A model generated the notes under the pieces. That model was given only the letters and a program-made list of their open reading frames with translations. It was not told where the DNA came from and searched no databases. 64,000 bases of DNA from Candidatus Omnitrophica bacterium UBA6249 (lineage in GTDB: Bacteria > Omnitrophota > Gorgyraeia > Gygaellales > Profunditerraquicolaceae): assembly GCA_002441305.1 (NCBI GenBank), contig DJVT01000009.1, positions 12,839 through 76,838 on the forward strand, given 5' to 3'. The position numbers and the translations under genes were made by a program. Every line of letters starts with the position of its first letter. Position 1 is the stretch's first letter. Of the stretch, positions 15,478-53,163 are shown piece by piece.

Positions 15478-16653
15478 GTGAAAAATATGAATAAAGACAA
15501 TATTGCTCAAAACAATCAGACTTTTTACGGATTGGGTATCGCTCCCAAGATACTGGATATTCTGGAGCGCATAAAATTCAAGACACCTACTCCTATACAG
15601 TTTAAAGCTATCCCGCTGGCCATATCCGGCAAGGATATCGTTGGAATAGCGCAGACTGGTACCGGGAAAACGCATTCGTTCCTTATTCCGATGGTTCAGC
15701 GCCTGGTGCAGAAGGAGGGGGTGGGCCTGGTGCTTGCGCCTACAAGGGAGCTGGCTATCCAGATACACGAAGCCTGCCAGCCGTTAGCCTGCGCTTTCGG
15801 CATGAAAACAGCCTGCCTTATCGGGGGAGCCCCTATGGAACCGCAGGTGCATGCTTTGCGTAAAGATCCCCGCATGGTAATTGCCACTCCGGGCAGGCTG
15901 ATCGACCATATGTCGCAGTGGAATTTCATTCCGGATAATGTGGTAATGCTTGTGCTCGATGAGGCGGACCGTATGCTCGATATGGGGTTTGCCCCGCAGA
16001 TAGACAAGATACTGCGTTTTCTCCCCCGGGACAGGCAAACTATGCTTTTTTCGGCGACTATGCCCAAGGAAATCATGAATATCGCCTCGCGCCATATGAA
16101 GCTTCCTTTAAGCGTGGAGATAGCCCCGTCGGGTACCACCGCGGAAAAGGTGACGCAGGAATTGTTCATCTTAAAGAAGGAAGCCAAACCGCGCTTGCTT
16201 AAACAGCTGCTTTCGCAGTACCACGGTTCGGTGCTCCTTTTTTCGCGCACCAAGTATAACGCCAGGAAGATTGTCAGGTCTATACGCGAGATGGGGCATT
16301 CCGTTTCCGAGATCCATTCGAACCGTTCTCTCGTCCAGCGTAAAGATGCCCTCGAAGGTTTCCGGTCGGGTAAATACAGGATCCTGGTCGCTACGGACAT
16401 AGCCTCGCGCGGCATAGACGTAACCGGGATAGAATTGGTGCTCAACTACGACCTTCCGGAAGACGCGGATAATTATGTGCACCGTATAGGCAGGACAGCC
16501 CGAGCGGGCCATAAAGGACATGCTATCTCTTTCGCCACTCCCGATCAGGAAAGGGATGTGCGGGAAATAGAAAAACTCATTAAGGCCAACCTTCCGGTTT
16601 CCAAACATTCCGATATCACATTAGACAAATTCTCTAAAAAACGGCAGAGATAA
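15478..16653 (+). CDS. DEAD-box ATP-dependent RNA helicase
   Basis: Q motif, AQTGTGKT, DEAD, SAT and HRIGRTARAG. The last codons overlap a solo repeat arm. Confidence 0.9.
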   Translation: MKNMNKDNIAQNNQTFYGLGIAPKILDILERIKFKTPTPIQFKAIPLAISGKDIVGIAQTGTGKTHSFLIPMVQRLVQKEGVGLVLAPTRELAIQIHEACQPLACAFGMKTACLIGGAPMEPQVHALRKDPRMVIATPGRLIDHMSQWNFIPDNVVMLVLDEADRMLDMGFAPQIDKILRFLPRDRQTMLFSATMPKEIMNIASRHMKLPLSVEIAPSGTTAEKVTQELFILKKEAKPRLLKQLLSQYHGSVLLFSRTKYNARKIVRSIREMGHSVSEIHSNRSLVQRKDALEGFRSGKYRILVATDIASRGIDVTGIELVLNYDLPEDADNYVHRIGRTARAGHKGHAISFATPDQERDVREIEKLIKANLPVSKHSDITLDKFSKKRQR

Positions 16654-16700
16654 TTCTTTTCTAACCCTCTGAATATGAATACCTTGGATAAACTGTCTAC
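16647..16700 (+). repeat. Solo right arm of the two-box repeat (contains the MFS start codon)
   Basis: Inner GAGATAATTCTTTTCTAAC at 16647..16665, a 17-nt linker, then outer-like CTTGGATAAACTGTCTAC ending at 16700. No matching left arm is seen upstream. Confidence 0.6.
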
Positions 16701-17916
16701 AAATAAGCGGGCGGCGTTCCAGTTGATTTTTCTTTTCGGGCTGGTCAGCCTCTTCGGGGATATGGTTTATGAAGGGGCGCGCAGCGTAAACGGGCCGTAC
16801 CTGAAAATACTCGGGGCCAACGCCGCGGCGGTAGGGGTGGCGGCAGGGATCGCCGAATTCCTCGGTTATGCCATCCGTCTTTTCTCGGGCTATTTCGCCG
16901 ACAGGACAAAGGCTTACTGGTTTTTTACTTTTCTCGGTTACGGGCTCTTGGTCAGCGTGCCTTTGCTTGCCTTGGCCGGCATCTGGCAGGTGGCTGTGGT
17001 TTTTATTATCGTTGAGAGGATGGGGAAGGCCATGCGCAGCCCGGCCAAGGATACCATACTTTCCCAGGCTACGAAACAGGTAGGGACGGGATTCGGATTT
17101 GCCATAGCCGAAGTGCTTGATCAGATAGGGGCGATTGCCGGGCCGTTGGTTTTCAGCCTGCTTTTTCTCGCTATCGGTTCGGGAAGCGGAGCGCTGCGGG
17201 ATTACCAGCATGGTTATTCTTTGCTCTGGATCCCTCTTTTTCTGGTGATTGCCTGTGTTTTTCTTGCCTACCGGCGCCTCCCGGACCCGGAGTCACTGGA
17301 GGCCTCTTCGGAAAGAAAAGGCCTGGCTACCGATAAGCTGGGCAGGGTTTTCTGGATATACACTTTTTTTACCTTTGTAACTACTCTTGGTTTCGCCAAT
17401 TTTGCCCTGGTAGGGTATCATCTTAAAGCCAGGCATATATTGAGCGATGCGCAGATACCGCTTTTTTACGCGCTGGCTATGGGGGTGGATGCCGTTGCGG
17501 CCTTAATTATCGGCAAGGCCTATGATATATTCAAGATAAGGCACAATAACGAAAAAGCCGGTTTAGTCACTTTGCTGGTTATTCCCGTGTTTTCCCTGGT
17601 TATCCCGGTCCTGGTGTTTTCCTCGGGTCTTATTACAGTGTTGTGCGGGGTGGTCGTTTGGGGAGTGGTCATGGGCGCCCATGAGACAATCATGAAATCC
17701 GCTATCGCTGACTTGACCCCTCTGAAGAAACGGGGGACCGGTTACGGGATATTCAATACCGCTTATGGCCTGGCTATCTTTGCCGGGAGCGCCGTTTGCG
17801 GCCTGCTCTATGAACATTCCATATTGTCGGTGATTATCCTCAGCGTGCTTGTCGAACTGGCGGCTTTGCCGGTATTCTTGATTTTGAGAAAAGAGGCTTT
17901 GACAGATACAGCCTGA
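16675..17916 (+). CDS. MFS transporter
   Basis: 413 aa with ~12 predicted TM helices. The first ~9 codons (MNTLDKLST) lie inside a repeat arm. Confidence 0.7.
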   Translation: MNTLDKLSTNKRAAFQLIFLFGLVSLFGDMVYEGARSVNGPYLKILGANAAAVGVAAGIAEFLGYAIRLFSGYFADRTKAYWFFTFLGYGLLVSVPLLALAGIWQVAVVFIIVERMGKAMRSPAKDTILSQATKQVGTGFGFAIAEVLDQIGAIAGPLVFSLLFLAIGSGSGALRDYQHGYSLLWIPLFLVIACVFLAYRRLPDPESLEASSERKGLATDKLGRVFWIYTFFTFVTTLGFANFALVGYHLKARHILSDAQIPLFYALAMGVDAVAALIIGKAYDIFKIRHNNEKAGLVTLLVIPVFSLVIPVLVFSSGLITVLCGVVVWGVVMGAHETIMKSAIADLTPLKKRGTGYGIFNTAYGLAIFAGSAVCGLLYEHSILSVIILSVLVELAALPVFLILRKEALTDTA

Positions 17917-24893: not shown

Positions 24894-25655
24894 ATGAAGA
24901 ATTTCAGGCTTATCCGTTCTATCCCCCAAAACGCGCAATACAATATGTCCTTCGATGAGAATATGTTTTTCCGTTATGCAGAGGACGGTATCCCGTCATT
25001 CCGCGTGTACGGATGGGACGGGCCGGCTTTTACTTATGGGGCCGGGCAGCATCCTGAAGGGCAGCTTGATCTCGAGAGGTGTTCGCGCGACGGGGTCCGG
25101 GTCGCAAAGAGGATCACCGGCGGTGGCGTGTTGTTCCACCATCGCGAGATTACTTATAGCCTTGTCTGTTCCAAGGAGGATATAGGAGAGGACGAGAGGT
25201 CGCTTGTTTCTTACAGGCAGGTCTGCGCCTTTTTGATAGAATTCTACAAATCTCTCGGTCTGGAGCCGCGTTTTGCGCTTGAGGCCGAAGGCTTCCGTGA
25301 CAAGTCGCTTCCGCACCCTTTGTGCAGCGCATCGCACGAAAAATACGATATTGTCATCGGCAGAAGGAAGATAGGCGGCAATGCGCAGAAGCGCAGGAGA
25401 AGAGTGGTATTTCAGCATGGTTCTATACCTGTAGCAATAGATTGGTCAATTCCTTCCAGGTACGTGTTGGATATGCCGGAGGGAATCTCTTCAGGAGCTA
25501 CTTCCCTGGAGGAGGAATTAAAAAGCGTTCCGGAAAGCCGGGAGCTTGAGCGCCTGCTTATAGATTCCTTTGCTGCAGCTTACGGAGTTGATTTTCTTAA
25601 AGAGGGCGAAGTGGAAGGCGAGAGGAATGTTTGTTTTGTAACTCAAGGAATATGA
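24894..25655 (+). CDS. Lipoate-protein ligase / octanoyltransferase family protein (LplA/LipM-like)
   Basis: BPL_LplA_LipB-type catalytic domain (RITGGGVLFHH..., RKIGGNAQKR). Sits between gcvP and lipA. The last codons lie inside a solo repeat arm. Confidence 0.65.
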   Translation: MKNFRLIRSIPQNAQYNMSFDENMFFRYAEDGIPSFRVYGWDGPAFTYGAGQHPEGQLDLERCSRDGVRVAKRITGGGVLFHHREITYSLVCSKEDIGEDERSLVSYRQVCAFLIEFYKSLGLEPRFALEAEGFRDKSLPHPLCSASHEKYDIVIGRRKIGGNAQKRRRRVVFQHGSIPVAIDWSIPSRYVLDMPEGISSGATSLEEELKSVPESRELERLLIDSFAAAYGVDFLKEGEVEGERNVCFVTQGI

Positions 25656-25677
25656 AGAAGTTGAATAAACTGTCTAC
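25624..25677 (+). repeat. Solo right arm of the two-box repeat (spans the lipoyl-ligase-like/lipA junction)
   Basis: Inner GGAATGTTTGTTTTGTAAC at 25624..25642, a 17-nt linker, then outer-like GTTGAATAAACTGTCTAC ending at 25677. No matching left arm is seen upstream. Confidence 0.6.
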
Positions 25678-26539
25678 AAAACCGGAGTGGTTGAAGAAGA
25701 AGATTTCGCTGGGAGGGTGCGCCCAGGTAAAGGGGATGCTTAAGGATTTGCGCCTGCATACCGTATGCGAAGAAGCGCTTTGCCCGAATATGGGGGAGTG
25801 TTTCGCCAGGCGCCAGGCCTCTTTCCTTATACTCGGGGATATCTGCACGCGTTCGTGCCGTTTCTGCGGCGTAAAGAAAGGCAGCCCTCTTCCCGTAGAC
25901 GGCGGCGAGCCGGAGCGCCTGGCCGAGGCCGTGCGCAGGCTCGGCCTGTCCCATGTGGTTATTACCAGTGTTACGCGCGACGATCTCCCGGACGGAGGCG
26001 CCGGGGTATTCGCCGGGACTGTTTCCTTGCTGCGCGCTGTATCGCCGGGGGTTTGCGTGGAGACGCTTATCCCGGATTTCAATGCGGATGAATGTGCCTT
26101 GCGCGTATTGGCCGCCGCATCCCCGGATATTATCGCCCATAACGTGGAGACCGTGCCCGCCCTTTACCGGAAAGTAAGGCCGAACGGGGCCCTTTACGCC
26201 AGATCTCTCGGTCTGCTGCGTTCCTTAAAAAAGATCGCTCCCCATATACCGCTCAAGTCCGGCTTGATGCTTGGTTTGGGTGAAAACAAGGAAGAGGTTC
26301 TTTCCGTATTCGATGACCTGGTTTCCGCGGGGTGCTCCTTTTTGAGTATCGGGCAATATCTTGCCCCCAGCGGCAGCCATGTTCCTGTGTCCGAATATAT
26401 CCATCCGGACGAGTTCGAGGAGTACGGGAAAGAGGCTATGGCGCGGGGTTTTGTCTATGTAAAAAGCGGACCCTATGTGCGCAGTTCCTACAACGCCTCC
26501 GATTACCGTAAGGCGCTTGAAGCGGCCGGGTGCGTATAA
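25652..26539 (+). CDS. lipA: Lipoyl synthase
   Basis: KPEWLKKK, CEEALCPNMGEC and radical-SAM CTRSCRFC motifs. ATG 25652 overlaps the upstream stop (ATGA). The listed TTG at 25631 is less likely. Confidence 0.9.
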   Translation: MKKLNKLSTKPEWLKKKISLGGCAQVKGMLKDLRLHTVCEEALCPNMGECFARRQASFLILGDICTRSCRFCGVKKGSPLPVDGGEPERLAEAVRRLGLSHVVITSVTRDDLPDGGAGVFAGTVSLLRAVSPGVCVETLIPDFNADECALRVLAAASPDIIAHNVETVPALYRKVRPNGALYARSLGLLRSLKKIAPHIPLKSGLMLGLGENKEEVLSVFDDLVSAGCSFLSIGQYLAPSGSHVPVSEYIHPDEFEEYGKEAMARGFVYVKSGPYVRSSYNASDYRKALEAAGCV

Positions 26540-37375: not shown

Positions 37376-37954
37376 ATGAAAATAGGCGTTATCGGCGGGA
37401 CGTTTAACCCCGTACATATAGGCCATCTGATACTTGCGGAAGAGGCAAGGGAAAAACTGGGGCTGGATAAGGTAATCCTTATCCCCACGGCTATGCCTCC
37501 GCATAAAGATGCCTCCGGGATCGCTCCCGCGGAAGACCGGCTTAAAATGCTTAAGCTGTCCGTAAAGGGGAATAAATTCTTCTCCGTTTCGGATATGGAG
37601 ATCAGGCGCCGGGGTCGTTCTTATACAATCGACACGCTGAGGGAGTTGAAACGCAGGTTTGCCCGCGATGAGATATATTTTATTATCGGGTCGGATCTGT
37701 TAAAGTACCTGAATGAGTGGAAAGACCTGGGGCAGATACTTGAGATGGTCAAGTTCGTCGCTGCGACGCGCCCGGGGTACCCTCTTGAGCAGATACCGGA
37801 TTGCATAGATACTATACCTATCCGAGCGGTGGATATTTCGGGTTTTGAGGTAAGAGAGTGTGTGCTTAAGGGCAGGTCGTTCCGTTACCTGGTACCCGAA
37901 GCAGTTTTTAACTACATAACCAAAAACAAACTGTACAGTAGACAGTTTACGTAA
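37376..37954 (+). CDS. nadD: Nicotinate-nucleotide adenylyltransferase
   Basis: GGTFNPVHIGH motif. ATG 37376 is preferred over the listed TTG 37367. The last 5 codons and the stop lie in the repeat outer box. Confidence 0.85.
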   Translation: MKIGVIGGTFNPVHIGHLILAEEAREKLGLDKVILIPTAMPPHKDASGIAPAEDRLKMLKLSVKGNKFFSVSDMEIRRRGRSYTIDTLRELKRRFARDEIYFIIGSDLLKYLNEWKDLGQILEMVKFVAATRPGYPLEQIPDCIDTIPIRAVDISGFEVRECVLKGRSFRYLVPEAVFNYITKNKLYSRQFT

Positions 37955-38060
37955 CTCTTTGATAATAATATTGTTACAAAACAAATATTCCCGGAACCTA
38001 CAAGGGGGTGTATTTCTTTTGTAACTATTGTATTTACATAATGTTATATAAACTGTCTAC
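37938..38060. repeat. Repeat unit A: empty two-box inverted-repeat element (123 bp palindrome-like)
   Basis: L arm: outer GTAGACAGTTTACGTAAC at 37938..37955, inner GTTACAAAACAAATATTCC at 37973..37991. A ~14-nt spacer follows. R arm: inner GGTGTATTTCTTTTGTAAC at 38007..38025, outer TTACATAA[TGTTATATAA]ACTGTCTAC at 38034..38060. Confidence 0.85.
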
Positions 38061-42343: not shown

Positions 42344-43510
42344 ATGAAAAACGTCGAAGAACAGCTTAAGCTTATCAGGCGCGGGGTAGTAGAGGTAATC
42401 TCCGGGGATGAATTGCGCAAGAAGCTTGAGTGGAGCGTTAAGTCCGGGCGCCCGTTGAAGGTAAAAGCGGGATTCGACCCTACCGCTCCTGACCTGCACC
42501 TGGGGCATACCGTGCTTCTGAGGAAGCTGCGCCAGTTTCAGGATCTGGGGCATGAGGTATATTTCCTGATCGGCGATTTTACCGGCCGTATAGGGGATCC
42601 CACAGGGCGTTCGGAGATCAGGAAACAGCTTACCAGGCAGGAGGTAGCCAAGAATGCCAGGACTTATAAGAAACAGGTTTCCAAGATCCTGGACGTAAAG
42701 AAGCTGAAGATAGTCTTTAACAGCAGGTGGTTTGAGCGCATGCAGGTAGCCGATATGCTCAAACTTACTACGCTTGCCTCGGTTTCCCAGATGCTTGCCC
42801 GGGAGGATTTCAAAAAGCGTTATTCCCAGGGCGAGAATATCTCCATCCTCGAGTTCATTTATCCTCTTATGCAAGGCTATGATTCGGTTATGCTCAAGGC
42901 AGATATCGAGCTCGGCGGGACGGACCAGATATTCAACCTTTTGGTAGGGCGCGACCTGCAAAAGGATTTTAACCAGCACCAGCAGGTGGTCCTGACCATG
43001 CCCCTCCTGGAAGGCACCGACGGCGTGCAGAAGATGAGCAAGTCGTACGGGAACTATATCGGCATAAACGAGACCGCAAAAGAAATGTTCGGCAAGGTGA
43101 TGTCGGTCTCCGATGAGCTGATGCTCAAGTACTACGAGCTGCTTACCGACGAGGACATGGATGCGGTAAAGAAGATGCATCCCAGGGAGGCCAAGGTAAA
43201 ACTGGCCAAGATTATCATTACGCAGTACCATTCGGCGCAGGCGGCAGAAAAAGAGGCGGCGGAGTTTACTCGCGTATTCTCCCAAAAGGAAGTGCCGCAG
43301 GATATGCCGGTTTTTAAGGCCAGCGGCAAAAAGAGCGTATTGGCTATCCTCCTGGAGAGCAAGCTTGTCGCCAGCGGCAACGAGGCGCGCCGCCTGATCA
43401 AGCAGGGCGCGGTAAGCTTCAACAACGTAAAAATAGACAAAGATGACTTTATCCCCGGCGAGCCGGGTATCCTCAAGGCCGGTTCCCGCCGCTTCCTCAA
43501 AATCCTGTAG
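42344..43510 (+). CDS. tyrS: Tyrosyl-tRNA synthetase
   Basis: HIGH-type [13 protein letters not shown], and a C-terminal S4-like domain. The TAG stop is the TAG of the repeat head GTAG. Confidence 0.9.
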
Positions 43511-43622
43511 ACAGTTTACGTAACTCCATATCCTTCACTTAGATCCAAAAGAAATATTCCCATACTTAAAAATAATTCCGTTAGACTCATCTTCCTTTTT
43601 CGTCAATTGCGGTAAAAGGAGG

Positions 43623-44315
43623 ATGACCATGCCGTCACATGCGCGCAGGCACCAGTTGCAGCAATCGTTGGTATATCATGCATTCAGCAGAAGCAGCGGG
43701 CGCAGGGAGATTTTTCATAACTCCCGGGACTTCGCATACTTCAAGAAATTAATCAAGGATTATACAGATAAATTTGGGATCAGTGTGTATCATTGGGTGA
43801 TCATGCCGAATCATTACCATCTTGTTCTTGAGCTTGATGTTCCTGAATCGATCTCCGGTTTTATGGCAGGATTGCACCGGGCGTATAGCCATTATTACTG
43901 CAGGAGATACGATACGGTGGGATTCTTGTGGCAGGGGAGATTCAAATTACAGCCGGTGCAGAAAGAGGCGTATTTGAAGAATTGCGGCAGGTATGTGGAA
44001 AGGAATCCGGTGCGTTCCGGGTTCGTTAAAGAGGCCTGTGAATATAACTATGGCAGCGCGCGATTCTATTGTTTGGGAGAAGAGGACGGGATAACAAAAA
44101 TGAGCCCTTATTTCGATGAATTCGGGAATAATATCAGGGCCAGGCAGGTGGCCTATAAAGAGTTCTTAAGCGTCCTTGACCGGGGGGATGAAGATCGTTT
44201 TTCCGGTGCGGGTATTATTTGCGGCGATAAGGTTTTTATCGGGAAACTGGTAAAAATGAACGGGCATTATTTTCCGAGAAGGAGCGGAAGAAGAAGGCTT
44301 TCTGGAGAGAGTTAA
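43623..44315 (+). CDS. REP-associated tyrosine transposase (RAYT; IS200-like Y1/HUH transposase family)
   Basis: HUH motif in MPNHYHLVL, WQGRF block, and the catalytic-Tyr context RYVERNPVR. AAAGGAGG RBS precedes the start. Confidence 0.8.
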   Translation: MTMPSHARRHQLQQSLVYHAFSRSSGRREIFHNSRDFAYFKKLIKDYTDKFGISVYHWVIMPNHYHLVLELDVPESISGFMAGLHRAYSHYYCRRYDTVGFLWQGRFKLQPVQKEAYLKNCGRYVERNPVRSGFVKEACEYNYGSARFYCLGEEDGITKMSPYFDEFGNNIRARQVAYKEFLSVLDRGDEDRFSGAGIICGDKVFIGKLVKMNGHYFPRRSGRRRLSGES

Positions 44316-44356
44316 TTTATCTTTATTTCCCCTCCGTTTGGATATATAATCAAAAC

Positions 44357-44626
44357 ATGTTCTGGACTTTTATCGGGGCGCTCGCCGCTACCTTAACCAT
44401 GTTTTCATTTATTCCCCAAATAGCCAAATCCATGCGGACAAGGTCTGTTAAAGATGTGAGCCCGGTTACTTTGTTCCAGCTTTCTACGGGAGTATTTCTC
44501 TGGATGGTGTATGGCTTTGCGCGCAAGGACCCTATAATAATCGGGGCTAACCTGATTACCTTCGCCAGCCTTACGGTGCTCATTTTCCTATACTTTAAAT
44601 ATAAAAGGATAAAAGTTTCTTCATAG
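44357..44626 (+). CDS. SemiSWEET / PQ-loop small membrane transporter
   Basis: 89 aa with three TM helices and a PQ motif (FIPQIAKS). Confidence 0.7.
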   Translation: MFWTFIGALAATLTMFSFIPQIAKSMRTRSVKDVSPVTLFQLSTGVFLWMVYGFARKDPIIIGANLITFASLTVLIFLYFKYKRIKVSS

Positions 44627-44700
44627 CCGGAGTATTTCTTTTACAACTTTATATAAATCAACGGATTACATAAACTGTCTACGGAGCTGCGGAGCAGGGG

Positions 44701-45564
44701 ATGAAGGGGATAATTTTAGCGGGGGGAAGGGCTACAAGATTATATCCGATCACCAAGAGTGTCTGTAAGCAGATGCTTCCTGTTTACGACAAGCCGATGA
44801 TATACTATCCTTTGTCGGTGTTGATGCTCGCCGGGATAAAGGACATCCTGCTTATCTCTTCCTCCAAAGAGCTCCCCAGGTTCAAGGACCTGCTGGGAAG
44901 CGGAAAAGACCTGGGCATCAGGATCTCTTATGCGGAGCAAAAAAAGCCGGAAGGGATCGCCCAGAGCCTGATTATAGCCGAGGATTTTATCGGCAGGGAC
45001 AGTATCTGTCTTATCCTGGGGGATAACATCTTCTACGGCTACAACCTGGTCAAACTTCTTCAGAACCACGCCAAATTGAAAAAGGGTGCGGTTGTCTTCG
45101 GCTACTGCGTGAAAGACCCCGCCCGCTACGGGGTATTCAAGTTCGACAAAAAAGGGCAAGTTGCCTCGATAGAAGAAAAACCCGCCCACCCCAAGTCCAG
45201 CTGGGCTGTTTCAGGGCTGTATTTTTACGACAACGATGCGCCTAAAATCGCCAAAAGGATAAAACCGTCCGCAAGGGGGGAGCTTGAAATTACCTCGGTA
45301 AATAATGAATATATAAAAAGAGGGGGGCTGAAGGCTGAGTTCCTCGGCCGGGGGCACGCCTGGCTCGATACAGGGACTTATGAATCCCTCATCGATGCCT
45401 CCGTGTTCATCAAGACCATCGAGGAGCGGCAAGGGCTGAAGATCGGGTGCATAGAAGAAGTCGCTTACCGGATGAAATATATAAACAAAGGCCAGCTTAT
45501 CAGGCTTGCAAAGAGGATGCCCGCTGCCTACGGGAACTATTTAAGGAACCTGTCCCGAGAGTGA
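44701..45564 (+). CDS. rfbA: Glucose-1-phosphate thymidylyltransferase
   Basis: GIILAGGRATRLYPIT N-terminus and RmlA-type blocks throughout. Confidence 0.9.
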   Translation: MKGIILAGGRATRLYPITKSVCKQMLPVYDKPMIYYPLSVLMLAGIKDILLISSSKELPRFKDLLGSGKDLGIRISYAEQKKPEGIAQSLIIAEDFIGRDSICLILGDNIFYGYNLVKLLQNHAKLKKGAVVFGYCVKDPARYGVFKFDKKGQVASIEEKPAHPKSSWAVSGLYFYDNDAPKIAKRIKPSARGELEITSVNNEYIKRGGLKAEFLGRGHAWLDTGTYESLIDASVFIKTIEERQGLKIGCIEEVAYRMKYINKGQLIRLAKRMPAAYGNYLRNLSRE

Positions 45565-46406
45565 GAAAAAACATACTTGTTTTAGGAAAAGGTTTTATCG
45601 GAGAAAGGATAGGCAGGGAGCTTGGCTGCCGGGTCTCCGGCGCAGTGATAAATTCTTTTAGCGATGCGGATAGGCTGCTCGGCCGCTACAGGCCTGAGAT
45701 AGTGATTAACTGCATCGGCTCCAGCGGAAGGCGCAATGTCGATGACTGCGAGGAGGATAAAGAGGCGACTTTGCTTGCCAACAGCTTTATTCCGTTGATG
45801 CTTGCCGAGGCCTGCCTGCGCCGGGGGATCAAGCTCGTGCATATCAGTACCGGCTGCATCTTCAATTTCGATTACAGAAAAGATAAGCCTATCAAAGAAG
45901 GGGAAAGGAATTATTTTCTCAAGCTGTTCTACAGCCGCAGCAAGATTTATTCCGAGGCCGCTCTCGAGGCCCTTTCTGCAAAAGCGGGCATACTTATCCT
46001 CAGGATCAGGATACCCTTGCTCGATGAAAGCCACCCCAGGAATATTCTGGACAAGCTTGTTAAATACGAAAAGATTGTCGATGTCCCAAACTCGGTGACC
46101 TATCTGCCTGATTTTATCAGGGCGTTAAAACATTTGATTGGGGTTGGCGCAGTAGGGGTGTATAATGTAGTGAATAAAGGCGGCCTGCGTTATTCCGAGC
46201 TGATGAAGGTTTACCGGAAGTATCTGCCCGGGCCGGATTTTAAGTTTGTCTCTGTGCGCAAACTTCCTTTAACCAGGACAAACCTGCTTTTGTCTGTCGC
46301 CAAGCTTGAGAGAACGGGTTTTAAGGTCAGAGATATCCATTCCGTTCTTGACGAATGCCTCAAGCATTATGTAGACAGTTTACGTAACCCTGTTAAACAT
46401 AAGTAA
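45561..46406 (+). CDS. RmlD-like NAD(P)-dependent sugar-nucleotide reductase (divergent dTDP-4-dehydrorhamnose reductase-like)
   Basis: Rossmann LVLGKGFIG and YxxxK as YSRSK. GTG 45561 overlaps the rfbA stop (GTGA). The listed ORF start 45447 overlaps rfbA. The last 11 codons run through repeat arm C. Confidence 0.5.
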   Translation: MRKNILVLGKGFIGERIGRELGCRVSGAVINSFSDADRLLGRYRPEIVINCIGSSGRRNVDDCEEDKEATLLANSFIPLMLAEACLRRGIKLVHISTGCIFNFDYRKDKPIKEGERNYFLKLFYSRSKIYSEAALEALSAKAGILILRIRIPLLDESHPRNILDKLVKYEKIVDVPNSVTYLPDFIRALKHLIGVGAVGVYNVVNKGGLRYSELMKVYRKYLPGPDFKFVSVRKLPLTRTNLLLSVAKLERTGFKVRDIHSVLDECLKHYVDSLRNPVKHK

Positions 46407-47483
46407 TTACAAAAGAAATATTATGGGGAAGAAAAGACACAGCAGCGTTTTAGTTACCGGCGGGGCCGGATTTATCGGCAGCGCCTTTGTCCGGCTTCTG
46501 GCGGAGCAGGGAGTTCCCGTTGCCGTCTTGGACAAGCTTACTTATTCGGGGGATCTGAAGCGCCTTGAAGGTACAGGCGGCAGGTTCAGGTTTTACAAAA
46601 CCGATATCTGTAATAAGAGGGCAGCAGGTGCGGTCTTTGCCAGCGAAAGGCCAGACACAGTGGTGCATTTTGCCGCAGAGAGCCATGTTGACCGCAGTAT
46701 CAAGGACGCTGCGCCATTTATCGAGACCAATATCAAGGGCACTCAGGTGCTTCTCGATGTAAGCCGTAAATACAGCGTAAACAGGTTTGTGTTTATTTCC
46801 AGCGATGAGGTCTATGGAGAGATTGCCGACGGTAAGTTTAAAGAGGACTTTCCCCTTAAACCGAACAGCCCTTATGCCGCATCCAAGGCTGCGGCGGATC
46901 TCCTGGTGCAGGCTTATATCAGGACGAATAAATTTCCCGCGATAATCGTAAGGCCGTCAAATACCTATGGCCCATGGCAATACCCGGAAAAGCTGATCCC
47001 GCTTGCCATACTCAGGATACTCGGGAAGGAAAAAGTTCCGGTTTACGGGAAAGGCAAGAATATACGCGAATGGCTGTATATCGACGATTGCGTGCGCGGT
47101 ATCGCGGAAATTATGGACAAAGGCAGGCTCGGGCAGATCTATAATCTGGGCGGTTCATGCGAAAGCAGGAATATAGATACGGTCAAACTTCTCTTGAGGC
47201 TGCTCGGGGAAAAGGCGGACAGGTTCAAATTTGTGAAAGACCGGCCGGGCCATGATATAAGATACAGCTTAAACTCCGGGAAGGCGGCGAAAGAACTCGG
47301 CTGGAGGCCTAAGGTAAAACTTGCCGAAGGGCTTAAATCGACCGTAGCCTGGTCGCTCGGCCACAGGGATTGGCTGAAGAGTAAGCTGGCGGACGTAAAC
47401 AAACTGTACGGTAAATAGTGCTGCGATAGGGAATGTTTCTTTTGTAACTTTATAATATCAAGCTGGTTACATAAACTGTCTAC
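46371..47483. repeat. Repeat unit C: rfbB bracketed by the two-box inverted arms
   Basis: L outer GTAGACAGTTTACGTAAC at 46371..46388; L inner TTACAAAAGAAATATT at 46407..46422, abutting ATG 46423. R inner GGAATGTTTCTTTTGTAAC at 47430..47448; R outer GTTACATAAACTGTCTAC at 47466..47483. Confidence 0.75.
46423..47418 (+). CDS. rfbB: dTDP-glucose 4,6-dehydratase
   Basis: TGGAGFIGS, HFAAESHVDRS, SSDEVYG and YAASKAAAD. Confidence 0.9.
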   Translation: MGKKRHSSVLVTGGAGFIGSAFVRLLAEQGVPVAVLDKLTYSGDLKRLEGTGGRFRFYKTDICNKRAAGAVFASERPDTVVHFAAESHVDRSIKDAAPFIETNIKGTQVLLDVSRKYSVNRFVFISSDEVYGEIADGKFKEDFPLKPNSPYAASKAAADLLVQAYIRTNKFPAIIVRPSNTYGPWQYPEKLIPLAILRILGKEKVPVYGKGKNIREWLYIDDCVRGIAEIMDKGRLGQIYNLGGSCESRNIDTVKLLLRLLGEKADRFKFVKDRPGHDIRYSLNSGKAAKELGWRPKVKLAEGLKSTVAWSLGHRDWLKSKLADVNKLYGK

Positions 47484-47487
47484 AAAA

Positions 47488-48552
47488 ATGGCAACGGTTA
47501 TTGTTACAGGTTCATGCGGGTTAATCGGTTCTGAGACGGTAAGCTTCTTTGCCGACAAGGGCTTCGATATCGTCGGTATCGATAACAATATGCGCAGGAA
47601 TTTCTTCGGCTCCGACGGTTCGGTGCTCTGGAACCGGAAACGCCTGCAGAAGCTGCATAAGAATTACCGCCATTATTCCGTGGATATCCGGGATTCCGGT
47701 AAAATAAATTCTTTGTTCAAGAAATACTCCAAAGACATAGCCCTGATCGTGCATGCGGCTGCCCAGCCTTCGCATGACTGGGCGGCAAGGGATCCTGAGG
47801 TTGACTTCGGGGTGAATGCCCAGGGGACGCTGGTCATGCTTGAGGCCGCGCGTAAGTTTTCTCCGTGGGCAGTATTTATCTTTACTTCTACGAACAAGGT
47901 CTACGGCGATACGCCGAACCGCCTGCCGCTGGTTGAGAAAGAGAAGCGTTTTGAGATTGCCGACAGCCATCAGTATTCCAAAGGCATAGATGAATCCATG
48001 AGCATAGATAACTGCCTGCATTCCGTGTTTGGCGCTTCCAAGGTTGCCGCCGATATCATGGTGCAGGAGTACGGCAAATATTTCCATCTGCGCACAGGCG
48101 TATTCCGCGGGGGCTGCCTTACCGGCCCGGCGCACTCCGGGGCGGAGCTGCACGGTTTTCTGTCCTACCTGGTGAAATGCTGCGTGACCGGACGCAAATA
48201 CAAAATCTACGGTTACAAAGGAAAGCAGGTCAGGGACAATATCCATTCTTACGACCTGGTGAATGCCTTTTACCATTATTTCCAGAATCCACGCTGCGGA
48301 GAGGTTTACAATATGGGCGGCGGCAGGTTTGCCAATGTTTCCATCCTTGAGGCCATCGAGTTGTGCGAGAAATTAAGCGGCAGCAGGCTGTCTTATGACT
48401 ATGTAGACACCAACCGTATCGGAGACCATATCTGGTGGGTAAGCGACGTCTCCAAATTCAAGTCGCACTATCCTTCCTGGCAGTATGCCTTCAATATTGA
48501 ATCCACTCTTTCCCAAATCATAGACAGTGTACGTAACTCCATAAAATACTAA
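47488..48552 (+). CDS. NAD-dependent epimerase/dehydratase (CDP-paratose 2-epimerase-like)
   Basis: Rossmann TGSCGLIGS and [12 protein letters not shown]. The expected YxxxK reads FGASK. The last 10 codons run through repeat arm D. Confidence 0.65.
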
Positions 48553-49204
48553 TAGTTACAAAACAATTATTCCATGATGCTGCGTTAGATTATTCCTCTT
48601 TCTGCGTCTATTGACGTTAGAAAGGAGAGAATATGAGTAAAAGAATAGCTTCTGTGGAGGTTGTGGCGGGTAAGATTATATTACTAAGAGGGAAAAGGGT
48701 AATGTTGGATTCTGACTTAGCGGAGCTATATGGGGTAAAAACATTTAACTTTAACAAAGCCGTTAAACGCAATATAAGGCGTTTCCCGGAAGATTTTATG
48801 TTTCAACTTACCACGGAGGAATATAGGAACTTGATATTCCAAAATGGAAGGTCAAGATGGGGCGGCAGGCGATATGCTCCTTATGTTTTTACTGAGCAAG
48901 GCGTAGCCATGTTATCCAGCGTGCTCAAATCGAAGCGGGCTATTGAAGTTAACATAGCAATAATGCGTGCTTTCGTGAAGTTACGGGAGTTATTATTGAC
49001 ACATAAAGAATTAGCAAAAAAGATTGAGGAGTTAGAGCGTAAGTACCAACTGCATGAAACGGACATTCAGACAATATTTGAGGTAATTAAAAAACTTCTT
49101 GAGCCTCCGCAGAAACCTCCTAAACCGCGATTCGATATAAATTAATGATACGAATAGATTTTTTATAATTTCATAGGAATGATAAGGTTACGTAAACTGT
49201 CTAC
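48520..49204. repeat. Repeat unit D: ORF6N-domain gene bracketed by the two-box inverted arms
   Basis: L outer ATAGACAGTGTACGTAAC at 48520..48537; L inner GTTACAAAACAATTATTCC at 48555..48573. R inner (degenerate) GAATAGATTTTTTATAAT at 49152..49169; R outer GTTACGTAAACTGTCTAC at 49187..49204. Confidence 0.75.
48633..49145 (+). CDS. ORF6N-domain (KilA-N-related DNA-binding) protein
   Basis: [18 protein letters not shown]...[21 protein letters not shown]...[18 protein letters not shown] is the typical ORF6N pattern. C-terminal coiled coil. Confidence 0.7.
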
Positions 49205-49211
49205 ATAAATA

Positions 49212-49240
49212 TTGACAGGGAGAGGGGATGAAAGTAAGAT
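49212..49240 (+). promoter_or_regulatory. Possible sigma70-like promoter for the 49272 gene
   Basis: TTGACA (49212..49217), 17-nt spacer, TAAGAT (49235..49240), just after the R outer box of unit D. Confidence 0.35.
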
Positions 49241-49271
49241 AAATAAATAAACTTTAGCTAAGGGCAGATAG

Positions 49272-50315
49272 ATGAGATATAGAAACATACTGATTACCGG
49301 AGGGGCCGGGTTCGCGGGGAGCAACCTGGCTGTGTATTTTAAAGAGAGGTATCCTAAAACAGAAGTCTTTTCCCTGGATAACCTTGTCCGAAGGGGCAGT
49401 GAATTCAACCTTCCCAGGCTAAAGAAGGCCGGGGTTAAGTTTATCCGGGGAGACGTCAGGCGGCCAAAAGACCTTGATTTTATACCCGGTATCGACCTGG
49501 TGATAGAATGCTCTGCCGAGCCCTCGGTTTTGGCAGGATATGAAAAGCCCGCTTATATTATCGATACCAACTTGAACGGTACGGTAAACTGCCTTGAGTT
49601 TTGCCGCAGACGCAAAGCGGATATTATCTTTATCTCCACCAGCAGGGTATACCCTTACGACAGGATAAACGCGATCGGGCGCAGAGAGAAGGCAACCCGG
49701 TTTGAATGGAAGGATTTTTCCGGAGTTGGAACGGGTTTTCCGCTCACCGGCCTGCGCACATTGTATGGGGCGACCAAGCTTTCCTCGGAACTTATCCTCC
49801 AGGAGTATGCGGCGGCATACGGGTTTAAATCGGTAGTCAACCGTTGCGGGGTGCTGGCCGGGCCGTGGCAGTTCGGCAAAGTTGATCAGGGGGTATTTAC
49901 ATACTGGATGCTGGCGCACTATTTCAAAAGGCCGCTTAAATATATCGGCTTTGGCGGCGAGGGCAAGCAGGTGCGCGACCTCCTGCACGTAGATGACCTG
50001 TGCAGCCTGGTGGATATGCAGGCGGGTATCCTGGATAAAATAAACGGCAATACGTATAATGTCGGCGGGGCGGGCGAGGTGAACCTTTCTCTCCTTGAGG
50101 CCACCGGATTATGCCGCAAGATCACCGGCAACAAGATCAAAATCGGCAGCGATAAACGCAACCGCCCGGGAGATATCGCAATCTACATTACGGATAATCG
50201 TGAAGTTACCCGGCAGCTAAAGTGGAAGCCTCGCAAGCAGCCTGTTGCGATCCTGAAAGATATCTTCGGCTGGATCAGGAGGCATGAGCCGATGCTGAAG
50301 AAGCTGATAATGTAG
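49272..50315 (+). CDS. NAD-dependent epimerase/dehydratase (CDP-paratose/tyvelose 2-epimerase-like)
   Basis: ITGGAGFAGSNL, YGATK and SLDNLVRRGS blocks. The TAG stop is the TAG of the repeat head GTAG. Confidence 0.65.
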   Translation: MRYRNILITGGAGFAGSNLAVYFKERYPKTEVFSLDNLVRRGSEFNLPRLKKAGVKFIRGDVRRPKDLDFIPGIDLVIECSAEPSVLAGYEKPAYIIDTNLNGTVNCLEFCRRRKADIIFISTSRVYPYDRINAIGRREKATRFEWKDFSGVGTGFPLTGLRTLYGATKLSSELILQEYAAAYGFKSVVNRCGVLAGPWQFGKVDQGVFTYWMLAHYFKRPLKYIGFGGEGKQVRDLLHVDDLCSLVDMQAGILDKINGNTYNVGGAGEVNLSLLEATGLCRKITGNKIKIGSDKRNRPGDIAIYITDNREVTRQLKWKPRKQPVAILKDIFGWIRRHEPMLKKLIM

Positions 50316-50638
50316 ACAGTTTATGTAACTCTATGATAATATAGCAGTTACAAGATAAATATTACCGGTTTAAACACAGCAGGAGGCTATCGGGGAGGGC
50401 GCATGAGCGACGAAGGCGGGTTCCTGGTGAAGTTTGACAACAAAAAATCGCTTCGTTGTTACAAGATTGAATTCGATTACGATGAATACCGGTATGTGAT
50501 TAACGGCAAGGAAAAACACAAGCTTCCCCCGCGTGTAAAAGAGATCAATATCAAGGTCGAAGGTTAGCTGCCGGCGTATCAGGAGGAGTAATTCTTTTGT
50601 AACCTATGAGGCCTTAGATAGTTACGTAAACTGTCTAC
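50312..50638. repeat. Repeat unit E: 54-codon ORF bracketed by the two-box inverted arms
   Basis: L outer GTAGACAGTTTATGTAAC at 50312..50329; L inner GTTACAAGATAAATATTACC at 50347..50366. R inner GGAGTAATTCTTTTGTAAC at 50585..50603; R outer GTTACGTAAACTGTCTAC at 50621..50638. Confidence 0.75.
50403..50567 (+). CDS. Small hypothetical protein (54 aa) inside repeat unit E
   Basis: Translated by hand: MSDEGGFLVKFDNKKSLRCYKIEFDYDEYRYVINGKEKHKLPPRVKEINIKVEG. AGGAGG/GGGAGGG lie upstream. It is not in the ORF track and I recognise no homology. Confidence 0.3.
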   Translation: MSDEGGFLVKFDNKKSLRCYKIEFDYDEYRYVINGKEKHKLPPRVKEINIKVEG

Positions 50639-50653
50639 AGCATACACAAAGAT

Positions 50654-52291
50654 ATGAAGATTGCGATTTTACAACTTAACTTTACCGTCGGCGACATTAC
50701 CGGCAACGCTGAGAAGATTATTTCAGCCGTGAAGGATGCGGCTTCCTCTGGCGTAGACTTGTTTATCACCTCCGAGCTTGCCCTGACAGGCTATCCGCCG
50801 AGAGACCTGCTTTTAAATAAGTCTTTTATCGAAAAGACCTGGCAGGCGGCTTCAGTCCTGGCCAAGAGTCTGTCAGGTTATCCGCCGCTTCTTCTTGGCG
50901 TGCCCGAGGCGAATACTTCAGGAGGAGGCAAGCCTCTCTATAATTCCGCAGCACTCTTAAAAGACGGAGCGGTATCCCGGGTCTTCAGGAAAACCCTTTT
51001 GCCCACTTACGACGTATTCGACGAATACCGCTATTTTGAGCCGGCCGAACCTTCAGCCGCCCTTGAATTAAGCGGGCTCAAGATCGGCGTTACTATTTGC
51101 GAAGACATTTGGAACGACAGGGATTGTTCGCCCCTGCATCTTTATAAGCTCGACCCGCTCGAAAAACTTTTCTCTTCCGGCATAGACTGTATCGTCAACA
51201 TATCTGCTTCTCCGTTTTTCCTGGGCAAACAGAAGATCAGGGAGGAGATGCTGGGTAAAATCGCCGCCAAATACAAGATTCCCCTGGTTTACGTAAACCA
51301 GTGCGGAGGCAACGATGATTTGGTGTTTGACGGCAGGAGCTGCGTTTTTTCCGCCGATGGCAAATTGGCCAGCCGGGCAAAGCCGTTTAGCGAAGATACC
51401 CTTATCGTAGATGTGCCGGGCTCATCCGGGCGCAGAGAGCCGTATATTGAACTTCCGGAGGAGGAAATCTGGGAGGCGCTGGTTTCCGGGACAAGGGATT
51501 ATGCCGCAAAGTGCGGTTTTAAGAAAGTCCTGCTGGGCCTTTCCGGGGGCATAGACTCCGCGCTTACCGCCGCAATCGCCGCGGAGGCGTTAGGCAAAGA
51601 GAATGTATTTGGCGTCCTTCTTCCTTCTCCTTATTCCAGTAAAGGGAGTATCGATGATGCGCTCGCCCTGGCCAGGGGGTTGGGGATTAAGGAACTCAAG
51701 GTCCCGATTAAAGGCGTGATGTCCGCTTTTGCCAAAGCCTTGCGCCCTGCCTTCAGAGGCTGCAGGAAGGATACCACCGAGGAGAATATCCAGTCCCGCA
51801 TAAGAGGCAACATACTTATGGCGCTCTCCAACAAGTACGGAGCGCTCCTTTTGACTACCGGCAATAAATCCGAGCTTGCCGTCGGCTACTGCACTATTTA
51901 CGGGGATATGTCCGGCGGCCTTGCGGTCATCGCCGACGTGAGTAAAACTATGGTCTACCGTATCGCCAATTGGCTGAACCAAAAAAAAGGCGGCATCATA
52001 CCGCAGAATTCCATCGACAAGCCGCCGTCTGCCGAACTGCGCCCCAACCAGACAGACCAGGACAGCCTTCCGCCGTATGAAATCCTTGATAAGATCCTTT
52101 ATAACTACATAGAGCTGCATAAAAGCGCCGAGGAAATAACAGAAATGGGCTTTGACAAAGAAACTGTGGTAAAGGTTTTATCTCTGGTCAAGAAAGCCGA
52201 ATTCAAACGCAAGCAGGCCGCACCCGGCATCAAGATTACCGATTGCGCCTTTGGCACAGGTTGGCGCATGCCTATTGCGGCAAAGAAGTAA
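50654..52291 (+). CDS. nadE: Glutamine-dependent NAD+ synthetase
   Basis: N-terminal CN-hydrolase domain (GVTICEDIW) plus a C-terminal NAD synthetase with the PP-loop SGGIDS. Confidence 0.9.
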   Translation: MKIAILQLNFTVGDITGNAEKIISAVKDAASSGVDLFITSELALTGYPPRDLLLNKSFIEKTWQAASVLAKSLSGYPPLLLGVPEANTSGGGKPLYNSAALLKDGAVSRVFRKTLLPTYDVFDEYRYFEPAEPSAALELSGLKIGVTICEDIWNDRDCSPLHLYKLDPLEKLFSSGIDCIVNISASPFFLGKQKIREEMLGKIAAKYKIPLVYVNQCGGNDDLVFDGRSCVFSADGKLASRAKPFSEDTLIVDVPGSSGRREPYIELPEEEIWEALVSGTRDYAAKCGFKKVLLGLSGGIDSALTAAIAAEALGKENVFGVLLPSPYSSKGSIDDALALARGLGIKELKVPIKGVMSAFAKALRPAFRGCRKDTTEENIQSRIRGNILMALSNKYGALLLTTGNKSELAVGYCTIYGDMSGGLAVIADVSKTMVYRIANWLNQKKGGIIPQNSIDKPPSAELRPNQTDQDSLPPYEILDKILYNYIELHKSAEEITEMGFDKETVVKVLSLVKKAEFKRKQAAPGIKITDCAFGTGWRMPIAAKK

Positions 52292-53082: not shown

Positions 53083-53163
53083 GGTATAATATTACCCATT
53101 GTTCTTAATATGGTATTTCTTTTCTAACCACTTAGTTTTGTTTAAGTTACATACTTTATTTAC
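53083..53163 (+). repeat. Degenerate copy of the two-box repeat at the start of the glycan island
   Basis: Inner-like TGGTATTTCTTTTCTAAC at 53111..53128, a 17-nt linker, then GTTACATACTTTATTTAC at 53146..53163 (first 8 and last 3 nt match the outer box). A possible left-inner remnant GGTATAATATTACC lies at 53083..53096. Confidence 0.3.

Follow-up and report, generated by a model that had tools for sequence, protein, structure and literature searches.

A 64,000-nt stretch of contig DJVT01000009.1 from Candidatus Omnitrophica bacterium UBA6249, here called the window, carries two genes that are preceded by closely similar leaders of about 45 nt. One encodes a RAYT-like transposase of the Y1 (HUH) type, and the other encodes a protein with an ORF6N domain. 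Each gene lies between two inverted copies ("arms") of a repeat of about 55 nt, and we refer to the two ensembles as unit B and unit D, after the lettering (A to E) of the inverted arm pairs in the window. The leaders and genes of the two units are made up of the following features.

43580..43586, + strand: box 1 of the RAYT copy of the motif, GTTAGAC, a candidate −35-like element
43587..43600, + strand: 14-nt pyrimidine-rich spacer of the RAYT copy, TCATCTTCCTTTTT, the predicted anti-Shine–Dalgarno half of a hairpin
43601..43608, + strand: RAYT copy, box 2, CGTCAATT, which falls within the hairpin loop and is a candidate −10-like element
43614..43622, + strand: Shine–Dalgarno sequence of the RAYT gene, AAAAGGAGG, sequestered in the predicted hairpin
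43629..44315, + strand: RAYT-like Y1 (HUH) transposase gene (Pfam Y1_Tnp, E 4e-15)
48584..48590, + strand: box 1 of the ORF6N copy, GTTAGAT
48591..48604, + strand: 14-nt spacer of the ORF6N copy, TATTCCTCTTTCTG, the predicted anti-Shine–Dalgarno half of a hairpin
48605..48612, + strand: box 2 of the ORF6N copy, CGTCTATT
48621..48627, + strand: Shine–Dalgarno sequence of the ORF6N gene, AAAGGAG, sequestered in the predicted hairpin
48633..49145, + strand: gene for an ORF6N-domain protein of 170 aa (Pfam PF10543, E 3e-35)

Both the HUH motif (NHYHLVL) and the catalytic tyrosine (GRYVERNPV) are visible in the RAYT translation, whose best NCBIfam family is REP_Tyr_transpos (NF047646) with 66.8 bits, below the cut-off of 80. 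The gene almost certainly starts at its second ATG, at 43629, because its orthologues begin MPS(Y/H)AR and are called at 228 aa, and because this codon stands 6 nt after GGAGG. The first-pass annotation had joined GGAGG directly to the other in-frame ATG, at 43623, and this junction is 6 nt short of the probable start. The ORF6N protein matches PF10543 with 120.7 bits (gathering cut-off 27.8) and belongs to the anti-repressor class in PHROGs.

The stretch that the first-pass annotation had described as shared by the two genes, just upstream of each, does lie where it was placed, at 43579–43622 and 48583–48632. When the two leaders are formally aligned, 34 of 45 columns are identical, with two gaps and a local score of 31, compared with 12.1 ± 2.1 for 2,000 dinucleotide shuffles (maximum 26, none reaching 31). 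Searches of the 64-kb window for further copies with a degenerate 30-nt pattern, a two-box pattern and a covariance model, for which 0.00–0.04 chance matches are expected, returned B and D only. In Rfam, nothing overlaps either leader at E values up to 10 (43400–50800).

Motif copies and a predicted hairpin

The two leaders follow a common plan: GTTAGA(T/C), 14 nt, CGTC(T/A)ATT, 5–11 nt, a Shine–Dalgarno (SD) sequence and a start codon. In an alignment of copies (A1), GTTAGA and GTC.ATT do not vary, which is also true of 10 copies identified solely through the orthology of their genes, and the C preceding the invariant GTC of box 2 carries 1.8 bits. GTTAGAT and CGTC are separated by 14 nt in 23 of the 24 copies found without fixing the spacing, and the distance from box 2 to the SD is variable. 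A scan of viral contigs in IMG/VR, with a pattern that allowed spacers of 10–16 nt, gave 17 loci, of which 15 are true copies ahead of open reading frames (ORFs) of 44–58 aa; 14 have the same spacing. One such locus (L023 1–9300, IMG/VR 3300035659_002352; loci are designated by L numbers) is an integrative element with two tyrosine integrases, a resolvase and genes for a NikA-like protein, a D5-type primase and a CHC2 zinc-finger protein. Its motif copy precedes a 51-aa ORF of a conserved family (..KKLIEETKRIIRWRLFLDECGLS..) that has no database match.

Scans with fixed spacing recovered at least 120 copies in species-representative genomes and at least 120 in metagenomes, and about 15 chance matches are estimated for the genome collection (596 Gb). 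Both scans required an SD near box 2, so the closeness of the copies to genes is partly by construction. Among the matches listed, all record titles of the genome scan name Omnitrophota, "(uncultured) Planctomycetales" or unclassified "bacterium" metagenome-assembled genomes (MAGs); metagenome contigs carry no taxonomy.

The two collections together contribute 269 instances among the matches listed, and the downstream gene families agree between them (genome and metagenome counts are given in brackets). ORF6N genes are the commonest with 40 (18 and 22), followed by Y1 transposases of several subfamilies with 36 (17 and 19), zf-HC2 with 25 (13 and 12) and Sortilin/BNR with 23 (12 and 11). ComEA-like HHH_3 genes account for 17 (11 and 6), ComM/YifB for 11 (5 and 6), SpoVG for 11 (7 and 4) and a small ORF family for 11. 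The remainder includes a family of about 134 aa (5), DNA methylases (4; 2 and 2), BrnT-like genes (4), RadC (4; 2 and 2) and singletons such as Bro-N. The module stands in front of about a dozen unrelated gene families, and its distribution indicates that the genes behind it are co-regulated, not that they are mobile cassettes which can replace one another. A generic promoter of the housekeeping type it is not, because the 64-kb window contains only two copies and a canonical sigma-70-like promoter lies beside it (49212..49240).

ORF6N genes are often duplicated, in tandem pairs or with a full copy accompanied by a fragment, and the motif stands before each (L012 2384–2760 and 3893–4513; L070, L101 and L143). 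The family yields at least 8,000 matches at E below 1e-10, many on very short contigs. These sequences suggest that ORF6N genes may be present in many copies per genome.

The spacer is 82% pyrimidine and pairs with the SD of its own gene and the bases that follow. In the predicted fold of the RAYT leader, 43587–43603 pairs with 43609–43626 (−19.6 kcal/mol, z-score −4.1), and in that of the ORF6N leader, 48591–48608 pairs with 48613–48633 (−17.8 kcal/mol, z-score −3.2). The SD is in the stem in all of the first six copies considered (B, D and four orthologues, the latter with z-scores of −1.7 to −3.2). Duplexes between a spacer and its own SD region average −13.5 kcal/mol, versus −10.4 ± 0.2 for swapped partners and −9.8 for shuffled spacers. 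Among 101 copies aligned with the model, 83.7% of cells pair versus 73.7 ± 0.9, double-sided changes number 152 versus 73 ± 11, and the covariation score is 0.48 versus 0.31 (reached by 0 of 500 shuffles; slid registers give 0.09–0.20), but this alignment (A2) was fitted to the structure, and the swap test is the more independent evidence. Judging from these sequence comparisons, we take the SD-sequestering hairpin to be real.

The first-pass annotation had proposed that the two genes use a homologous expression module. This view holds in that the leaders are modules of the same type, alike far beyond chance, and it fails in that the module is not specific to B and D. Their spacers agree at 8 of 14 positions, a level that is reached by 48% of pairs of motif copies from different families and genomes (mean 7.4). 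Moreover, of the leaders that precede genes other than ORF6N in other MAGs, 62% give a better alignment with D than B gives, and the best partner of the D leader is the SpoVG leader of another MAG. By this measure, B and D appear to be no more alike than motif copies of unrelated genes. Two outcomes had been named as speaking against a shared module: an alignment score at the level of shuffled sequence, which is not what was obtained (0 of 2,000), and a leader found upstream of many unrelated genes, which is.

A candidate ECF-type promoter

Three properties of the module call for an explanation. The boxes and the spacing between them are invariant, the spacer is complementary to the SD region of its own gene, and about a dozen unrelated gene families are found downstream. 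We propose that the leader is probably a promoter of the type used by extracytoplasmic function (ECF) sigma factors to control a regulon, and that its spacer doubles as an anti-SD sequence. Boxes 1 and 2 would represent the −35 and −10 elements read by such a factor.

One line of evidence comes from the copies that precede genes for zf-HC2 anti-sigma proteins. In 11 loci, the motif directly follows an ECF sigma gene, and in L147 it overlaps the stop codon of this gene. The sigma gene before the zf-HC2 copies (about 200 aa) passes the TIGR02937 sigma70-ECF model with 59 bits, where the cut-off is 42.9. Copies of the anti-sigma family have a spacer that is in part coding sequence and lacks the pyrimidine richness, with a hairpin of −5.4 kcal/mol compared with −12 to −20 kcal/mol elsewhere. 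Because the boxes and their spacing are kept in this family despite the weak hairpin, the boxes are the core element. In this arrangement, the end of the sigma gene lies within the copy of the motif that would drive the zf-HC2 anti-sigma gene next to it. In addition, a mapped ECF regulon, that of Streptomyces coelicolor sigma-E, has CGTCT as its −10 element, in promoters of the form AAC-N16/17-CGTCT (PMC6767563).

The neighbourhood in L147 (3244–7950; similar in L113 and L138) consists of the ECF sigma gene, a motif copy with the zf-HC2 anti-sigma gene, a CHAT-TPR gene, and a second motif copy with a secreted Sortilin/BNR gene. The sigma gene of this type of neighbourhood has a sigma-70-like sequence upstream, TGGTATAAT, and no motif.

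A terminator-like hairpin with a T-run abuts GTTAGA in 27 of the 265 copies listed (for example, L009 and L012). These 27 copies have no room for an upstream promoter, because the terminator abuts box 1. A sigma-70 −10-like hexamer is found 4–10 nt upstream in 43 of the 265 copies listed, versus 22 in a control window. A scan for sigma-70-like promoters upstream of the unit B leader found none, and the scan before D found one weak match, inside the left arm, which is no more than shuffles give. An upstream sigma-70 promoter with its start at GTTAGA was rejected on these grounds, since a suitable hexamer is present in only 16% of copies and the scans of B and D were negative.

An ECF-started transcript would begin a few nucleotides after CGTC(T/A)ATT, which in the ORF6N copy is just downstream of CGTCTATT. 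Because the anti-SD lies between the boxes, it would be missing from this mRNA, whose SD would be free and which could be translated. In contrast, a read-through transcript arriving from upstream would contain the spacer, and it would fold back and hide the SD. RAYT and ORF6N would thereby be two co-regulated members of a regulon, each insulated from transcription of its neighbours.

Several points weigh against this proposal. Box 1 is GTTAGA(TT) in every copy, without the AAC core of most described ECF −35 elements, and the motif lies ahead of the anti-sigma gene instead of the sigma gene, an unusual layout for an ECF system. With a start 6–8 nt past CGTCTA, the mRNA would have its SD right at the 5′ end, and no sigma homologue is encoded in the 64-kb window. 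The SD requirement of the scans and the fitting of the 101-copy alignment to the structure, both described above, count on this side as well. Finally, the G·U pairs in the stems show selection at the level of RNA, and this equally fits a hairpin that is present in every transcript.

Such a hairpin is what would be expected if the module were instead an RNA element of the 5′ untranslated region (UTR), with transcription starting upstream of GTTAGA and a hairpin that keeps the SD inaccessible, in the manner of IS200 tnpA. In that case, a trans-acting protein or small RNA would bind at the conserved GUUAGAUU and CGUCUAUU and either open the hairpin or lock it. The strong covariation, G·U pairs included, and the conserved sequence in the loop agree with this explanation, as does a TAAAAT-like hexamer that occurs 4–10 nt upstream in 13 of 35 RAYT copies and in viral copies, and IS200, with its related Y1 transposase, provides a precedent (PMC4513863). 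However, the anti-sigma family preserves boxes and spacing with almost no hairpin, no more than the 16% of copies already mentioned have a −10-like hexamer at a fitting distance, and a terminator abuts box 1 in about 10% of copies. The combination of strict box-to-box spacing with a variable distance from box 2 to the SD is also promoter-like. We therefore regard a 5′-UTR element as rather unlikely.

It is improbable that the boxes form an operator for the ORF6N protein itself, which as a KilA-N-like DNA binder might regulate its own gene and control RAYT and others. ORF6N is the gene most commonly found behind the motif (40 of the 269 instances listed), and its product is predicted to be a DNA-binding or anti-repressor-type protein. 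Yet the ECF sigma/anti-sigma pair to which the motif is linked would make a simpler regulator, and the boxes are neither palindromic nor direct repeats, unlike many operators of dimeric binders.

Three further readings of the short sequences in the module were rejected. If the boxes were a sigma-70 promoter (TTAGAT-N18-TATTAT), the start would fall inside the SD. GTTAGAC and GTTAGAT fit the integron consensus GTTRRRY, but the arms alternate in orientation, no attC-like pairing was seen, and box 1 keeps a fixed distance from CGTC ahead of genes throughout the phylum. The occurrence of CGTC and GTAG, known as tags of repetitive extragenic palindromic (REP) sequences (PMC3733652), was taken as a coincidence, with CGTC in the hairpin loop and GTAG part of the uAGGAGG context of the SD.

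Resident genes and the repeats around them

A different interpretation is that units B and D are equivalent mobile elements (arm, leader, cargo, arm), in which ORF6N takes the place of the transposase and is mobilized in trans by RAYT. The first-pass annotation leaned in this direction, suggesting that the ORF6N gene had replaced the transposase or alternates with it. Both genes of the window are indeed bracketed by inverted arms, with the leader after the left arm. The relatives of these genes tell against exchange.

An identical ORF6N protein is encoded on the 10 contigs read, of which eight places from different samples were shown, and its context is the same throughout. Homologues with 76–80% identity are syntenic in L009, L010 and L012, from related Candidatus Omnitrophota, where the order of the locus is PQ-loop, rfbA, rfbD, rfbB, epimerase, epimerase, 54-aa ORF and NadE. 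ORF6N lies between the two epimerase genes in L009 and L010; in L012, a 64-aa ORF6N fragment occupies this position, and the full copy is one gene further on. RAYT homologues with 66–67% identity lie between the TyrS and PQ-loop/rfbA genes in L013, L015 and L018. Neighbouring genes of the locus show 61–89% identity, so that ORF6N and RAYT have diverged in step with them, which fits vertical descent of both genes with the TyrS...rfb...NadE locus. The leader is kept before every one of these orthologues, including both ORF6N copies of L012, and the orthologues were picked by protein identity, not by the motif. It is kept even where the left arm is degenerate or missing (L009 and L010) or where the arm has the opposite orientation (the full copy of L012).

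Flanking inverted repeats comparable to those of the window were found at 14 of 17 RAYT genes and at none of 14 ORF6N genes of other genomes, nor at any other family. The test tolerated mismatches, since a requirement for an exact match of at least 14 nt is too strict and misses unit D itself. The arm family occurs in five of 120 listed genome loci, four of them with an orthologous RAYT gene and the fifth (L067) with no gene called behind the motif. Only one of 15 ORF6N loci has arms of this family, and there is no evidence to link ORF6N to the arms, on which the first-pass annotation had suggested it could act as a partner or regulator.

One arrangement does fit an exchange of cargo. In L015 (6296–6886), a second left arm and leader, near-identical to those of RAYT, are followed by small ORFs, an HTH_37/HTH_3 gene and a right arm; the SD of this leader is degenerate and there is no RAYT gene. 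This is the sole such observation. Opposed to it are the synteny of both genes, the absence of inverted repeats at the 14 ORF6N genes, the full ORF6N copy of L012, whose leader lies behind an arm of right orientation, and the leader without arms in L009. Furthermore, rfbB, plainly a resident gene of an operon, is also bracketed by arms, and B and D resemble each other no more than copies ahead of unrelated genes do. An origin of the two units as equivalent mobile elements is therefore highly improbable, and the replacement or alternation proposed for ORF6N is not supported. From these comparisons, each leader appears to be a copy of a phylum-wide module and not a remnant of a common cassette. 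That the match between B and D is a chance similarity of AT-rich, SD-containing upstream regions deserves almost no credence: background local scores in the window do reach 26–27, but the pair scores 31, which 0 of 2,000 shuffles reach, and the invariant boxes recur in several hundred loci of one phylum.

The arms that flank the two units, and the nearby sigma-70-like promoter, are placed as follows.

43507..43563, + strand: left arm of unit B, a repeat of about 55 nt with outer box GTAGACAGTTTACGTAAC and a degenerate inner box
44629..44682, − strand: right arm of unit B, in the opposite orientation to the left one
48520..48576, + strand: left arm of unit D, beginning ATAGACAGTGTACGTAAC
49152..49204, − strand: right arm of unit D; its counterpart is degenerate in L010, and L009 has none
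49212..49240, + strand: sigma-70-like promoter TTGACA-N17-TAAGAT, ahead of the next epimerase gene and not part of the motif

The repeat unit consists of the outer box GTAGACAGTTTACGTAAC, about 17 variable nucleotides and the inner box GTTACAAAAGAAATATTCC. The 64-kb window contains 11 outer boxes and at least 13 arms, ten of which form the five inverted pairs A to E. Three more are solo or degenerate arms in right orientation (16648–16706, 25625–25683 and 53113–53153), and the second of these seems, from its sequence, to overlap the start of an apparent lipoyl-synthase gene (ATGAAGAAGTTGAATAAACTGTCTAC...). Pair A (37938–38060) is empty, with two inverted arms 13 nt apart and no gene inside, and this doublet folds as a single long hairpin (−21.7 kcal/mol, z-score −5.1) in the manner of a REPIN doublet. 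Pair B encloses the Y1_Tnp/RAYT gene and a PQ-loop gene, pair C rfbB, pair D the ORF6N gene, and pair E a 54-aa ORF (50403–50567). This ORF has no match in Pfam or NCBIfam and is found with 64–83% identity at the same position in L009, L010 and L012. Single arms are not stable palindromes, as 9 of 10 fold no better than shuffles (z-scores of about 0), and an assignment as classical REP hairpins was rejected because single arms do not fold.

Several arms abut or enter coding sequence. The TAG of GTAGACAG in the left arm of unit B (43507–43510) is the stop codon of TyrS, as it is in L013, L015 and L018, which have the orthologous arm at the same place. The epimerase gene (47488–48552) takes its final 10 codons and its stop codon from the left arm of unit D (overlap 48520–48552), and two substitutions in the outer box of this arm recur in its L012 orthologue. 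Arm sequence likewise supplies the C-terminal 12 residues of RfbD (46371–46406). In L009 (1039–3888), rfbD, rfbB and the epimerase gene abut or overlap without arms, while rfbB of the window is bracketed by them (46371–47483). Because L009 is armless here, the arms around rfbB are insertions on either side of a resident gene, in inverted orientation. The view of rfbB as captured cargo was rejected, given its orthologues at 69–82% identity and the absence of the flanking arms in L009. The TTGACA-N17-TAAGAT promoter, 8 nt past the right arm of unit D, has conserved counterparts in L009, L010 and L012; the arm was tolerated immediately upstream of it.

In L013 (5785–6289), L015 (5791–6289) and L018 (5777–6302), a BrnT toxin gene and a small overlapping ORF lie between the RAYT gene with its right arm and the PQ-loop gene. 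The small ORF, presumed to encode the antitoxin, has no Pfam match and is followed by another right arm. The pair is absent from the window.

Relation to known systems

With promoters of ECF sigma factors (group 4), the module shares two short boxes at a fixed distance, a downstream box CGTC(T), a scattered regulon, and genetic linkage to a gene pair for an ECF sigma factor and a zf-HC2 anti-sigma protein, in this order. It differs in having GTTAGA(TT) without an AAC core, in its position before the anti-sigma gene and in a spacer constrained by the anti-SD. Further examples of ECF regulons are those of SigW, SigM and SigY in Bacillus. Whereas ECF regulons serve envelope stress, the genes found here handle DNA or belong to mobile elements (ComEA, ComM, RadC, methylases, Y1 transposases and ORF6N). 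The motif is best described as a variant of the ECF-type promoter, and we do not file it in a known ECF group because the AAC core of the −35 element is missing.

IS200 has in common with unit B a Y1/HUH transposase gene and an SD-occluding hairpin, with a terminator directly upstream in some copies (PMC4513863). In IS200, the structure belongs to that element alone and the promoter is undefined, whereas the Omnitrophota module is common to about a dozen chromosomal and mobile genes. In IS10 and IS50, read-through transcripts reportedly fold back and hide the ribosome-binding site of the transposase gene, an inhibition said to have been described by Davis, Simons and Kleckner in 1985 and by Krebs and Reznikoff in 1986. 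The promoters of these elements start inside the inverted repeat, so that only external transcripts are silenced, and by analogy the same logic may operate here. To our knowledge, fold-back insulation is a device of single insertion sequences only; in the present case it would be built into the promoter spacer of an entire regulon.

The arms resemble REP/REPIN sequences associated with RAYT genes in being GTAG-tagged and intergenic and in flanking a RAYT gene in inverted orientation, and further parallels are a single-copy, vertically inherited Y1 transposase and an empty inverted doublet that folds as a hairpin (PMC3733652, PMC8049555, PMC3479197). They differ in their length of about 55 nt, in not being stable palindromes singly, and in abutting or overlapping the ends of coding genes. 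Unit B meets most of the criteria for a RAYT/REPIN system, except that its arms are not stand-alone palindromes and its protein scores below the curated RAYT cut-off. For annotation, this means that a gene bracketed by REP-like repeats is not automatically a "cassette."

The content of the set of genes also recalls competence regulons. Those of Haemophilus (CRP-S/Sxy) and Streptococcus (the ComX "cin-box") are well-known examples. In both cases and here, comEA, comM, radC, a DNA methylase and a toxin–antitoxin component are found behind one motif. The sequence of the motif differs, and the regulator would be an ECF sigma factor rather than CRP/Sxy or ComX. No dprA, comEC, comF or pilus genes are present among the 269 motif copies listed. 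We offer as a tentative possibility that Omnitrophota have an ECF-controlled regulon for DNA uptake and handling of single-stranded DNA, in which every promoter has an anti-SD spacer and only sigma-started transcripts are translated. Its members might include ComEA, ComM, RadC, DNA methylases, the domesticated RAYT, an expanded ORF6N family and genes of integrative elements.

The literature searched contains no description of this motif, of promoters or regulons in Omnitrophota, or of regulation of RAYT genes by sigma factors, and little is known of how RAYT genes are activated or what ORF6N proteins do. The motif provides a regulon that can be searched for by sequence (covariance model R1), and it places RAYT and ORF6N genes beside competence-type DNA-handling genes and an ECF sigma/anti-sigma pair. 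A promoter spacer that doubles as a translational insulator would be an unusual design. If the proposal is correct, the module would constitute a regulon-wide insulator against read-through transcription and the first defined regulatory input for RAYT genes.

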